DNA of 64,000 bases, from assembly GCA_963975985.1 (NCBI GenBank), contig CAXBIY010000001.1, positions 179,020 through 243,019 on the forward strand, in the 5' to 3' direction. The position numbers and the translations under genes are program-made. The first letter of the stretch is position 1, and each line of letters starts with the position of its first letter. Below, in pieces: positions 627 through 63,956 of this stretch. The stretch is from an uncultured Gammaproteobacteria bacterium. GTDB taxonomy: Bacteria; Pseudomonadota; Gammaproteobacteria; JABDGN01. The notes beneath the pieces were generated by a model. The model worked only from the letters and a program-made list of their open reading frames with translations. It made no database searches and was not told the DNA's origin.

Positions 627-665
627 GTCTCGTCATCCCGTGGCTTGACCACGGGATGACGAGAC
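627..665. repeat. Perfect palindrome GTCTCGTCATCCCGTGG-CTTGAC-CACGGGATGACGAGAC, a variant of the main REP-like unit; possible terminator for the upstream transporter gene
   Basis: 15-bp stem with 6-nt loop, seen directly; related to the GTCATCCCGCGG family. Confidence 0.6.
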
Positions 666-720
666 ATAAGAGATATCTTTGAGAACCTAAAACTCAAACG
701 CATTGGGTATAGCTATCCAT

Positions 721-1932
721 TTAAACTAACTGCGATAAAAATGTCTTCGCTGGCACGATAACAGGTTCTTCATAATCAAATACATCGCGATCGATATACT
801 CACCATCCATCGTTACTTGAAAAGCATGTTTAGCGCCCGTTTGTTTTTGGAAATAAGCGAGGTTTTCGCTTAGCTTAGCTTTTTTACTGCTTTTAACCTC
901 AACCAAGAACCACGCTTTTTGATCTTTAGTCACAACAAAATCGACTTCGCGCTTATCTTTGTCGCGCAAGAAATGAAGGCTGTAATCACCCATGCCGGTA
1001 TCATTCCAAAAGTTAACCGCTTTCAGTAAATGCGCAGCGATAAAGTTTTCGGCGCCCGCGCCTTTGTCTTCAATAATCGACCAGTCCCATAAGTAGGGTT
1101 TGGGTTCTTTGATTAAGCTGCGGGTAACATTTTTGGCCCACGGGGTAATTAGAAAGCAGTGATAAAACTGTTCCAGCGTGCTTATCCACGACTGCACCGT
1201 ATTGACCGTAACCTGCAGTTTCTTCGCGAGATTAGAGCGATTTAGCACACCGCCTACTTGGTGACGCAATAGCAATGCTAAGGTTTCAAGGCCAGCAATG
1301 TTTTTGATGTTGGTTAAATCCATGATGTCTTCACGAAACAATTGTTCGCTACGTAATTTTTGCCAACGGCGGCTAAAGTTTTCGCTTTGTTTAATAAACG
1401 GCTCAGGGAAGCCACCAAATTCGAGTAAGGCATCAAATGCTTCATCATCAATTTTGCTTGGTTGACGAATTTCATTTTTAGGTAAGGTCGTGTCGAGAAT
1501 TTCGGCGACAGAAAGCGGATGAACCGTATAAGGGAAATAGCGACCCATGAGACTGTCTTGTGATTTTCGGTAAACATCTAAATGCGTACTACCCGTCACA
1601 ATTAATTCAGCTTCACCTTTGGTGCTGTCATAAATGCCTTTAATATAATTTTTCCAATCCGGCATTTTATGAATTTCATCGAGCACGATAATCGGCTTAT
1701 CATCTTTCGCGCGGGCATCTTGCTTCACTGATTCAATAATACGGCTTTGGCCATCCAATAAGGTTTCGCGATCAGCCGTCACATCCCAATTGTAATAGGA
1801 GAAATGGCCAGTCAGCGTTTTCGCTGTTTTACTGACAGTGGTTTTACCAACCTGCCTTGGGCCAGCCAAAAACACACTTTGATCGAAATCTTCGATGTGC
1901 TGTTTTAACAAATGTGAGTACAATCTATCCAT
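721..1932 (-). CDS. AAA+ ATPase (Walker A GPRQVGKTT) with DUF4143-like C-terminal region
   Basis: P-loop motif, DExx-like VLDEIH motif, 403 aa. Confidence 0.7.
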   Translation of the reverse strand: MDRLYSHLLKQHIEDFDQSVFLAGPRQVGKTTVSKTAKTLTGHFSYYNWDVTADRETLLDGQSRIIESVKQDARAKDDKPIIVLDEIHKMPDWKNYIKGIYDSTKGEAELIVTGSTHLDVYRKSQDSLMGRYFPYTVHPLSVAEILDTTLPKNEIRQPSKIDDEAFDALLEFGGFPEPFIKQSENFSRRWQKLRSEQLFREDIMDLTNIKNIAGLETLALLLRHQVGGVLNRSNLAKKLQVTVNTVQSWISTLEQFYHCFLITPWAKNVTRSLIKEPKPYLWDWSIIEDKGAGAENFIAAHLLKAVNFWNDTGMGDYSLHFLRDKDKREVDFVVTKDQKAWFLVEVKSSKKAKLSENLAYFQKQTGAKHAFQVTMDGEYIDRDVFDYEEPVIVPAKTFLSQLV

Positions 1933-1998
1933 CCGACTATTTTATAGTCTACTGCAAATTAGTCAAGACTATTTTGCAGTAGACTATAAAATAGTCGG
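1933..1998. repeat. 66-bp near-perfect palindrome (26-bp arms CCGACTATTTTATAGTCTACTGCAAA, with a sub-palindromic loop) abutting the ATPase start codon
   Basis: Arms 1933-1958 and 1973-1998 are exact reverse complements; loop TAGTCAAGACTA is itself palindromic. Confidence 0.8.
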
Positions 1999-2053
1999 TA
2001 TCTGTGTCTCTTGTTGAAAAATAAAAAGAATATGGGGGGGTGAAAAAATGGAG

Positions 2054-61927: not shown

Positions 61928-61941
61928 GGTAATACTCCAAG

Positions 61942-62835
61942 TTAACGAGATTGTTTTTGTATTTGTTGATGATCCCGTAGAAATTTTTGGCGTAACAAAC
62001 CGCCGGGATCATCAGGAATTTGGTCTAACCACTGTTTAGTCGCGCGTTGTTGCTGACGTTGTTGTTCAGTTAGGCGTTTTTGCAGTTGGGACTGCGGTTT
62101 GTTTTGCGATGGCTTGGGTGCACCATTTTGTGGTTGAGGTTGTTGCTGCGGCTTGTTCTGTGGTTTATTTTGCGGTTGTTGTTTCGGCTGCGGCTGATTC
62201 TTTGAATCGTTCTGCTGTTTATCTTGCGGCTTGTTCTTTTGATCATTGTTTTGATCAGGCTTCTTGCCATTCTGCTGCTTTTTCTGAGTATTATTTTTAG
62301 GCTGATTCTGTTCGCCATTTTTATTGCTTGGTTGTTTGTTTTGTTGCGCTTGATCTTTGGGGGGTTGGCCTTGCTGCTGCTGATTTTGTTTTTTCTGATC
62401 TTGCTTTTGTTGTTTGTCTTGCTTTTTCTTTTGCTGCTTTAATTTTTTCACCACATTAATATTGTATTTAGCGTCCGCCATGGTGGGGTTAAGCTGCAAA
62501 GCATTTTGATAAGCGGCGAGGGCTTGCTTATATTGCCCCATTTGTGCCAATGCATTACCTTGGTTGTAATAACCTTTAGCTGAATGCTGCTTTTGAAATT
62601 CTTGTAAGGCTTGGCTGTAATTTTTAGCGCGATAATACGCGGTGCCTTTCCACTGCGGGTTATCAAATAAATTAGCCGCTTGTTTGGCATCGCCTTTTTG
62701 CAAGGCACGGCTGCCTTGTTGATCTGGCGTGTGCCATAAATCACTCCAAGTGCCAGCCGTACTAGTAGCGCTGACGAATAATAAACTGCTGATGAGTAAC
62801 GGGCGTATCATTGTTTCACAATCTCCGTTAACCAA
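61942..62835 (-). CDS. TPR-repeat protein with an extreme Q/K/N-rich low-complexity tail (BatC-like)
   Basis: Two or three TPR units (AYYRAKNYSQALQEF..., YYNQGNALAQMGQYKQALAAY) followed by a ~130-aa QKN-rich region. Confidence 0.6.
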   Translation of the reverse strand: MVNGDCETMIRPLLISSLLFVSATSTAGTWSDLWHTPDQQGSRALQKGDAKQAANLFDNPQWKGTAYYRAKNYSQALQEFQKQHSAKGYYNQGNALAQMGQYKQALAAYQNALQLNPTMADAKYNINVVKKLKQQKKKQDKQQKQDQKKQNQQQQGQPPKDQAQQNKQPSNKNGEQNQPKNNTQKKQQNGKKPDQNNDQKNKPQDKQQNDSKNQPQPKQQPQNKPQNKPQQQPQPQNGAPKPSQNKPQSQLQKRLTEQQRQQQRATKQWLDQIPDDPGGLLRQKFLRDHQQIQKQSR

Positions 62836-63812
62836 CCTTTACGAAAAGCTAGCAAGCTTAACAAAGCGGTTAGAATAATAAACCAACGACCTTGGTCTAA
62901 CCATACCTGCAATTTTTGTTTACTTTGTGAGGCTTTATCCGCGTGCGTCGGATTCATGGCTAACAAGGCTTTCACGTCCGCATTGTTATTGCTAAAGCCA
63001 ACATAGATGCCATTGCCAGCTTGCGCTAAGCGCTGCAGAGCTGAAGTATCTAAGCGATCGACTAATACATTGCCCGATTTATCTTTCATAAAGCTGCCGT
63101 CAGGCATGCCAATCGGCGCACCTGTTGCGGTACCAATCCCCATGACGGAGGTATGAATACCTTGCGAGGCTAAGAGCTTCACTTTTGCTAACGCTTTGCT
63201 TGAAGGTGCATCATCCGTCAAAATCATGATATTCGCGGGTTTCGCATTCGATTGTTCAATGAGGCTTTTTGCGCGGTCTAAGGCCATGCTCAAGTTGTTA
63301 CCGGCGACCGGCATAATGTCCGGGCTTAATTCCGACACCATGCCGGCAATGGTGCTGGCATCTTCGGTAATAGGGGAGACCACATAAGCTTCACCCGAAT
63401 AGGCAATTAATCCGGCAGACACACCTTTCATGCCGTGCAACAAATCCAATAACTTAAATTTAGCGCGTTCTAAACGCGATGGCTTAATATCATTAGCATA
63501 CATAGTAGGGGATAAATCGATCAGCACCACGTCAGCCGCTAACGAGCGATACACCGGCACCGGTAAGCGTGACCAAGTCGGGCCACTCATGGCAAACGCA
63601 GCCGCTAACCAAGCGATGAGTAATAACAACAAAGGTAAGCGTGATGATTTTTGCGGTTGTGATTGTAATAAGTGTGGCAGTAAATGTGGGTCACAAATCT
63701 TTTGCCAATTATTACGGCTGCGCTGCGTCATCCACAAGCGCACGACAATCACCACGCAAGGGATGATGGTCAGTAGCCACCAGGGACGTAGTAAATGCAA
63801 TTGATCAAACAT
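62808..63812 (-). CDS. von Willebrand factor A domain membrane protein (BatA/BatB-like)
   Basis: VVLIDLSPTM MIDAS start, TM helices at both termini, 334 aa. Confidence 0.75.
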   Translation of the reverse strand: MFDQLHLLRPWWLLTIIPCVVIVVRLWMTQRSRNNWQKICDPHLLPHLLQSQPQKSSRLPLLLLLIAWLAAAFAMSGPTWSRLPVPVYRSLAADVVLIDLSPTMYANDIKPSRLERAKFKLLDLLHGMKGVSAGLIAYSGEAYVVSPITEDASTIAGMVSELSPDIMPVAGNNLSMALDRAKSLIEQSNAKPANIMILTDDAPSSKALAKVKLLASQGIHTSVMGIGTATGAPIGMPDGSFMKDKSGNVLVDRLDTSALQRLAQAGNGIYVGFSNNNADVKALLAMNPTHADKASQSKQKLQVWLDQGRWFIILTALLSLLAFRKGWLTEIVKQ

Positions 63813-63849
63813 TATTTAGCCTCCCGTCAATTTCCTTCGGCTTCTGGGC

Positions 63850-63956
63850 ATTGTTGAACAAATCAATTTTTACAGCTCCGTCATCCCGCGGCTTGACCGC
63901 GGGATCCAGGCACTCGCTGATTTTTCTGGATCCCGCGGTCAAGCTGCGGGATGACG
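63850..63956. repeat. Second copy of the composite element seen at 15581-15750 (left outer arm plus two inverted REP units; right arm absent)
   Basis: CATTGTTGAACAAATCAATTTTTACAGCTC + GTCATCCCGCGGCTTGACCGCGGGATCCAG ... CTGGATCCCGCGGTCAAGCTGCGGGATGACG. Confidence 0.8.

Follow-up and report, generated by a model that had tools for sequence, protein, structure and literature searches.

The 64-kb stretch of DNA analyzed here, referred to throughout as the window, belongs to an uncultured, phylogenetically isolated marine proteobacterium. It carries a family of short hairpin-forming repeats scattered between genes and, inside one of the repeat clusters, a small minus-strand gene at 10136-10429 for a single-domain GIY-YIG protein. 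The arrangement at that gene is hairpin, ssnA homolog, inverted hairpin. The original prediction for this DNA had described the repeats and overlooked the gene, which lies on the strand opposite an open reading frame (ORF) that it regarded as an artifact. We propose, with a probability of roughly 0.82, that the two belong to one Ssn system in which the repeat units are CGTC-tagged repetitive extragenic palindromes (REPs), or Ssn-related motifs (SRMs), and the ORF at 10136-10429 encodes the cognate Ssn nuclease. The proposal draws on the anatomy of the repeats, the selection acting on their stems, the linkage between gene and repeats, and homology to a characterized enzyme.

A search with CGTCATCCCGCGGCTTGACCGCGGGATCCAG and its variants at ≤6 mismatches found 17 units, none of which is expected by chance, grouped in eight clusters between genes. 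The unit starts and strands are 632+, 9976+, 10029-, 10099+, 10439-, 10538+, 10591-, 15623+, 15669-, 21346-, 21436+, 53118+, 53174-, 59877-, 59981+, 63880+, and 63926-. Every cluster named in the original prediction was recovered, and its claims that the hairpin repeats exist and that units alternate in orientation both hold; shuffled sequence gave close to zero units, and alternation was seen inside each multi-unit cluster. At ≤3 mismatches the consensus 30-mer GTCATCCCGCGGCTTGACCGCGGGATCCAG occurs 11 times in the 64-kb window and 0.00 times in shuffles, and for the stem-loop core 13 occurrences were counted where 0.05 were expected. Six of the units are perfect copies, and three extra degenerate or collapsed units lie at 10479-10497, 53223-53242, and 59932-59960. 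None of the 17 units overlaps a long ORF in a window that is 87% coding, and the probability of all eight clusters being intergenic by chance is about 1e-7.

Each unit consists of an unpaired CGTC/TGTC head, a 9-bp stem (ATCCCGCGG/CCGCGGGAT) that begins with an A-T and then a T-A pair, a 5-nt CTTGA loop, and a CCAG tail. The head tetranucleotide in the window is CGTC in 15 of 17 units, TGTC in 1, and a degenerate CTTC in 1, whereas across all loci collected it is TGTC in 178 and CGTC in 93 of 287 units, most of which have the CCA tail. The stems are of two subtypes, CCCGCGG and TTCCGTGG, which alternate and are joined by conserved linkers. A single unit folds as single-stranded DNA (ssDNA) into the 9-bp stem and 5-nt loop at -11.9 kcal/mol (z=-4.6), and a dimer folds into one long hairpin at -46 kcal/mol (z=-16). 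Among 130 distinct units from many taxa, two-sided changes occur at all 9 pairs of the stem and 96.3% of cells are paired; none of 500 shuffles reached the observed values, and shifted registers were only 26 to 45% paired. These compensatory changes show that selection keeps the stem paired. Nor did the repeats arise as assembly artifacts, because the clusters recur at 99.99 to 100% identity in two independent metagenome assemblies of the same organism, one a Tara Oceans scaffold and the other from an ENA metagenome. Both break inside the repeats, ending exactly in a hairpin unit (L001, position 1) or in a dimer spacer (the end of L198, window position 15668), which indicates that the repeats fragment short-read assemblies of the host.

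The gene and the hairpins around it are arranged as follows.

9976-10005, plus strand: degenerate unit with the head CTTC and 4 mismatches, 5 nt past the stop codon of a cytochrome c gene
10029-10058, minus strand: unit of the TTCCGTGG subtype, part of a 101-bp module at 10041-10140
10099-10128, plus strand: unit of the CCCGCGG subtype, inverted relative to ssnA and beginning 7 nt past its stop codon; matches the SRM pattern
10136-10429, minus strand: ssnA homolog encoding a 97-amino-acid (aa) single-domain GIY-YIG protein, with ATG at 10429-10427 and TAA at 10138-10136
10439-10468, minus strand: unit of the TTCCGTGG subtype on the ssnA strand, ending 9 nt ahead of the ATG
10479-10497: collapsed unit GTCATCCCGCGGCATGACG, consisting of a head, half a stem, and an inverted head
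10538-10567, plus strand: perfect consensus unit; matches the SRM pattern
10591-10620, minus strand: unit of the TTCCGTGG subtype with 6 mismatches

One hairpin thus ends 9 nt 5' of the ATG, where its CCAG tail (unit 10439-10468) overlaps an AGGAG Shine-Dalgarno-like motif, and an inverted one begins 7 nt 3' of the stop codon. The 101-bp module at 10041-10140 is repeated at 10479-10578 with 84% identity, so that the two copies stand on either side of one gene. The 97-aa protein matches the Pfam GIY-YIG family with an E value of 6e-15; a search of NCBIfam gave a sub-threshold match only, to a group I intron endonuclease model. Against the ssnA region of Neisseria gonorrhoeae, which directly precedes a canonical NTS, the hairpin target of SsnA, the tblastn E value is 2e-27, and the pairwise alignment is gapless with 57% identity. 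The comparison was made against this gonococcal ortholog, and the numbering of mutated residues is that of Neisseria meningitidis SsnA. Tyr8, Tyr19, and Glu66 of the window protein align with Y6, Y17, and E64, which were mutated in SsnA, and the spacings of 11 and 47 residues are identical. The gene is present as a single copy in the window. Its homologs number in the thousands at 65 to 80% identity and come from taxa as diverse as the hairpin hosts. The ORFs at 10009-10191, 10302-10577, 21311-21889, and 59838-60041, which the original prediction attributed to the repeats, indeed look spurious and have no Pfam match.

The link between gene and hairpin was tested with two opposite ascertainments, by hairpin and by protein, on about 200 loci from many phyla. 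For the first, one genome per species was scanned with GTCATYCCGYGGCTTGACCRCGGRATCC, which gave at least 116 stretches. Among the matches listed, the hosts are Rickettsia, Kangiella, metagenome-assembled genomes (MAGs) of Coxiellaceae and Legionellaceae, Deltaproteobacteria, a Thermodesulfobacteriota single-cell genome, Treponema, and Dojkabacteria, and a lineage-specific repeat would not show such a taxonomic spread. Every ORF lying no more than 150 bp from a unit was assigned to a family by clustering. The sole family recurring across organisms beside hairpins, among the 116 loci listed, was GIY-YIG, with 12 loci, while the next-largest family had 3. The layout in these loci is constant, with a unit on the gene strand 15 to 35 nt ahead of the aligned start and an inverted unit 4 to 8 nt past the gene end. 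Starting from the protein instead, about 55 of 73 metagenome loci with enough flank carry inverted hairpins on both sides, far above shuffled controls; these hairpins have the form GTCAT-stem-loop-stem-ATCCAG, with variable stems and loops. Protein type and hairpin type also go together, in that 15 of 16 Ssn proteins with CTTGA-loop flanks have a nearest neighbor of the same hairpin type, a result matched by 0 of 2,000 permutations. One Candidatus Dojkabacteria MAG (L102, 2261-3009) has an ssnA homolog of 59% identity surrounded by four units that have the CTTGA loop and a CTCCG variant of the stem. As this is a genome of the candidate phyla radiation, the cassette of gene and units crosses very deep phylogenetic boundaries.

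The characterized member of the enzyme family, SsnA of N. meningitidis, is a 94-aa GIY-YIG protein in CDD family cd10448 (Chenal 2025, Nat Commun, PMC11893778). It binds the NTS hairpin CGTCATTCCCGCGMAVGCGGGAATCYRG as ssDNA only, cuts a few nucleotides upstream of it, and shows no binding to RNA; Ssn homologs of other species cut their own motifs, and deletion of ssnA leads to about five-fold more transformation with NTS-bearing DNA (PMC11893778). The same study found Ssn-related motifs flanking 71% of ssnA homologs, on both sides in 42%, and likened the NTS-ssnA-NTS layout to an insertion sequence (IS). Its SRM pattern, HGTCWYN(0-2)YYVSBRHN(0-5)WNVSBRGN(0-2)RNCYNB, is matched by 9 of the 17 window units, where 50 dinucleotide shuffles average 0.04 matches, and the ssnA homolog of the window is flanked by units both 5' and 3'. 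The repeat half of the system has its own literature. The paper on CGTC-tagged REPs (Di Nocera 2013, PMC3733652) describes elements whose CGTC or TGTC head is unpaired and whose stem, 8 to 9 bp long, has AT as its first two pairs, with a loop of 4 to 5 nt and a CCA tail; they occur mostly as inverted dimers, are extragenic, and are found in five phyla. The window units have the head, the stem, the loop, and the tail, and occur as multicopy extragenic inverted dimers.

By homology, the hairpins are predicted to be binding sites at which the window Ssn cuts ssDNA. A unit exposed as a single strand would fold into its hairpin with a 9-bp stem and 5-nt loop; candidate sources of such strands are incoming transforming DNA, the lagging-strand template, and repair intermediates. 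Ssn would then bind, on that strand alone, both the hairpin and the unpaired head and tail, and its cut would fall a few nucleotides to the 5' side of CGTC; duplex DNA and RNA would be left untouched. Because units are paired in inverted orientation, each strand would present one cleavable site. The likely outcome is that repeat-bearing ssDNA would be fragmented and recombination and transformation around the flanked genes thereby modulated. Given the IS-like cassette and the dimers that lack a gene, it is also possible that the repeats spread in an Ssn-dependent way and were later domesticated.

Several points weigh against this interpretation. Eight of the 17 units fail the SRM pattern, including the TTCCGTGG subtype and diverged subtypes, and it is a TTCCGTGG unit that directly flanks ssnA. 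The inverted layout is not universal, since the hairpins around ssnA in Neisseria are oriented otherwise. A solved structure of a relative was sought by sequence, and none was found. The cut site, strand specificity, and biological role proposed for the window protein and its CTTGA subtype are extrapolated from the characterized enzyme.

Directly upstream of ssnA and on the same strand lies a gene (10697-12211, minus strand) for a Mg-chelatase-like ATPase of the ComM/YifB type, a family that acts in natural transformation. Pairing of comM with ssnA was not seen in the other loci. As the upstream hairpin ends 9 nt from the ATG, there seems to be no room for a promoter ahead of ssnA, which could plausibly be transcribed by read-through from comM. 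Across its loop and 3' stem the hairpin has the letters TTGACC, similar to a -35 box. Promoter-like matches in the 1-kb region number 5, compared with 2.6 ± 1.8 by chance and so not clearly above it; three of the five, all on the minus strand at 10455-10428, 10045-10018, and 10607-10580, start at TTGACC. The match at ssnA is probably nonfunctional, because its -10-like box overlaps the ATG. Among homologs elsewhere, phage carriage was not found, and matches in the plasmid collection were to large secondary replicons, plus chromosome-sized records of N. gonorrhoeae and Aeromonas caviae. One of these, the 2.17-Mb N. gonorrhoeae record NZ_CP119142.1, is labeled a plasmid in PLSDB, yet is chromosome sized. 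In the gonococcal stretch drawn from it (L200, 1881119-1882588), the sole ATG near the ssnA homolog (locus 594-873) is one base out of frame and no ORF of at least 80 aa is listed, so that the gene may be disrupted at its 5' end.

The remaining clusters contain no nuclease gene.

626-667: double-headed unit with CGTCAT on both sides and no CCAG, forming an 18-bp perfect stem (DNA fold -23.9 kcal/mol, z=-11); probably a collapsed dimer
15581-15750: composite palindrome in which outer inverted arms of about 26 to 30 nt enclose a dimer of perfect units, between dinB-like and lexA-like genes
15623-15652, plus strand, and 15669-15698, minus strand: the dimer in the composite, tails facing, with a 16-nt spacer
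21346-21465: proC/yggS cluster, with a unit at 21346-21375 (minus strand), a tandem duplication at 21360-21426, and a unit at 21436-21465 (plus strand)
53118-53242: cluster between convergent genes, with a unit at 53118-53147 (plus strand), a unit at 53174-53203 (minus strand), and a collapsed unit at 53223-53242
59877-60010: cluster with a unit at 59877-59906 (minus strand), a degenerate unit at 59932-59960 (plus strand), and a unit at 59981-60010 (plus strand)
63846-63955: second dimer, with units at 63880-63909 (plus strand) and 63926-63955 (minus strand), a 16-nt spacer, and the left outer arm only (63851-63877)

The double-headed or collapsed units at 626-667, 10479-10497, and 53223-53242 have CGTCAT on both sides, lack the CCAG tail, and look like dimers without the spacer and inner halves; the form also recurs in other genomes. 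The plus-strand unit at 53118-53147 has diverged, and its TTGTGCGG stem is still paired. The 27-bp tandem duplication claimed by the original prediction is exact. It spans 21360-21426 with 2.5 copies and 100% matches, copies half of unit 21346-21375, and lies between proC (20501-21310, minus strand) and yggS (21478-22164, minus strand). The composite at 15581-15750 folds end to end as DNA at -85 kcal/mol (z=-20.8). The original prediction assumed it to be mobile and took it for a 170-bp miniature inverted-repeat transposable element (MITE) present twice, with outer sequence common to 15581-15750 and 63850-63956, a claim that is borne out only in part. The left arm and the dimer are indeed common to both places (63846-63925 and 15589-15668 are 89% identical), but the right side has no counterpart: the 44 nt after the second unit of copy 2 match no right arm of copy 1. 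The inverted arms expected of a MITE are present in the first copy, and the second lacks the right arm. No target-site duplication or direct repeat is visible at the composite borders, and the outer arm was found nowhere in the rest of the window or in 200 other loci.

These gene-less dimers bear on the best-surviving alternative, in which hairpin-ssnA-hairpin is an active, autonomous IS-like element and the dimers, including the 170-bp composite, are nonautonomous derivatives mobilized by Ssn, a GIY-YIG counterpart of the REP-associated tyrosine transposases (RAYTs) and their REPINs. The cassette has inverted terminal hairpins with heads outward, and the dimers share this head-out geometry and conserve the 16-nt spacer. 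With heads facing outward and cuts falling 5' of the head, cassette and dimers alike are predicted to be cleaved at their two outer borders, as would fit an IS-like past. The same dimer recurs in other MAGs at 89.5% identity, six perfect copies lie within 64 kb, and protein clade and hairpin type covary. Among the matches listed, a common GC-rich hairpin joins Rickettsia, Kangiella, Thermodesulfobacteriota, Treponema, and Dojkabacteria, and the idea was raised by the authors of PMC11893778 themselves. Set against this, no target-site duplication was found, composite copy 2 is partial, the outer arm occurs nowhere else, ssnA is single copy in the window, and two assemblies of the same strain show no presence/absence differences over about 20 kb. 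No Ssn is known to transpose. GIY-YIG proteins are hydrolytic nucleases, and we know of no strand-transfer or ligation activity among them. On balance we regard an active IS-like element as a tentative alternative at most, and it is similarly doubtful that the cassette is, or recently was, self-propagating and horizontally transferred, with the nuclease initiating the copying of itself and of the gene-less dimers. Were the cassette self-propagating, it would be the "missing transposase" of the CGTC REP superfamily, and transposition or homing would proceed by way of a hydrolytic ssDNA nuclease and host repair.

It is improbable that the repeats act chiefly at the RNA level, as terminators or stabilizers of mRNA 3' ends, with the link to ssnA incidental. 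Several clusters do lie just past stop codons or between convergent genes, cluster 21346-21465 is probably transcribed because it lies inside the yggS-proC transcription unit, and such functions are known for Escherichia coli REPs, as cited in PMC3733652. The stems are followed by no T-tract, and units stand in both orientations. An RNA role would explain neither why the unpaired head and the tail are conserved nor why the units are linked to one protein family across phyla, and SsnA does not bind RNA (PMC11893778). A terminator scan called no intrinsic terminator at the hairpins, and a search of Rfam for a known RNA family returned nothing except a tRNA at the gathering threshold and, at a relaxed one, nothing but microRNA matches at chance level. 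A secondary effect of the hairpins on RNA may nevertheless exist.

The weakest candidates, classical REPs or bacterial interspersed mosaic elements (BIMEs) mobilized by a RAYT and the QMITE2/IS1111 target repeats of Coxiella burnetii, also offer short, GC-rich, alternating extragenic palindromes with conserved linkers, and the approximately 43% GC of the window and its repeat peptides first suggested Coxiella, but they can practically be dismissed because the head is CGTC/TGTC and not GTAG, the clustering of ORFs within 150 bp of hairpins brought up GIY-YIG only and no transposase family recurring beside units in the 116 hairpin-chosen loci listed, Di Nocera et al. (PMC3733652) found neither an associated transposase nor a RAYT with CGTC repeats at its flanks, QMITE2 is reported to be a GTAG REP (PMC5896051), and window proteins are absent from records of the C. 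burnetii type. QMITE1 and QMITE2 of C. burnetii were rejected also because the repeat ORFs lack a DUF1658 match and the host differs. The label "REP-like, BIME-like" in the original prediction is consequently fair as a structural description, given the alternating units, subtypes, and linkers, whereas the units are neither classical GTAG/RAYT REPs nor E. coli BIMEs.

By exact-protein look-up, window proteins occur in a single MAG contig, in a scaffold from Tara Oceans, and in small ENA metagenome contigs, and nowhere else. The closest homolog of the yggS product (21478-22164) among 5.8 billion proteins is 61% identical, and named matches mix Beta- and Gammaproteobacteria, which indicates that the host lineage is poorly sampled. 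None of the loci collected for comparison is syntenic with the window. The window also encodes an 824-aa protein with many ankyrin repeats (6896-9370, plus strand), and a PIN-domain protein (3238-3642, minus strand) with a 77-aa ORF upstream, which together look like a toxin-antitoxin pair. Ankyrin-repeat proteins are typical of host-associated bacteria. The presence of one here fits the enrichment of SRM-rich genomes among symbionts (PMC11893778).

Repeats and nuclease together make up a system of a known kind, seen here in a new host, and because both have been published the finding matters little in itself. It does carry lessons for annotation: where "REP-like" hairpins are dense and have a CGTC head, they indicate an Ssn system, and a small GIY-YIG ORF among such hairpins is a real gene, while ORFs running through the hairpins are spurious. 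Modest extensions of the published work are that the CTTGA-loop subtype is near-identical from Rickettsia to candidate-phylum and spirochete genomes, that Ssn clades track hairpin type, and that the inverted head-outward layout is the common one in environmental genomes. Ssn-driven mobility is the sole reading that would raise the interest of the locus, and it is speculative.

Among known systems, QMITE2 of C. burnetii has a GTAG REP core, 7- to 11-bp direct repeats, a length of 150 to 190 bp, and a role as IS1111 target, and QMITE1 encodes DUF1658 peptides (Wachter 2018, PMC5896051). The 170-bp composite resembles QMITE2 in having terminal inverted repeats around a REP core and in its size, but belongs to another organism, and no GTAG REP, 7- to 11-bp direct repeats, or IS1111 targeting was seen in the window. 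REPIN/RAYT systems and the BIMEs of E. coli are likewise extragenic hairpins, with inverted dimers foldable into one hairpin and mosaic alternating subtypes, and a REPIN/RAYT system, like that of the window, has one partner gene per genome, flanked by repeats. The head there is GTAG in place of the CGTC of the window, the partner is an HUH/Y1 tyrosine transposase in place of a GIY-YIG hydrolase, and sequence similarity is absent.

The CGTC-tagged REPs are closer. The window units share with CGTC-3/4 the CGTC/TGTC head, the AT first pairs, the 9-bp stem, the 5-nt loop, the CCA tail, and extragenic inverted dimers with conserved spacers. The collapsed dimers have a parallel in those described for Wolbachia CGTC-4, and the dimer nested in a larger palindrome in those of Halothiobacillus neapolitanus, both in PMC3733652. 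There, CGTC-4 is equated with Rickettsia RPE-4 and is also recorded from Wolbachia. The 28-nt pattern of the window matches several Rickettsia genomes, and from these matches we infer that the units are probably CGTC-4 rather than CGTC-3. The CGTC REP paper reports no associated enzyme, whereas a cluster of the window contains an enzyme gene.

It is the Ssn system of Neisseria that supplies both halves. The Neisseria NTS (ATTCCCGCG-MAV-GCGGGAAT) differs from the window hairpin with its 9-bp stem and CTTGA loop, and downstream copies in N. gonorrhoeae are oriented as the gene, whereas the hairpins flanking the window gene are inverted with heads outward. The host here is an uncultured marine proteobacterium. 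The likeness extends to a single-domain GIY-YIG protein of about 95 aa that is 57% identical to the Neisseria SsnA region and keeps the catalytic Tyr/Tyr/Glu residues, and to hairpins with a GTCAT head and an ATCC(A/R)G tail that stand on both sides of the gene and occur in many extragenic copies around other genes.

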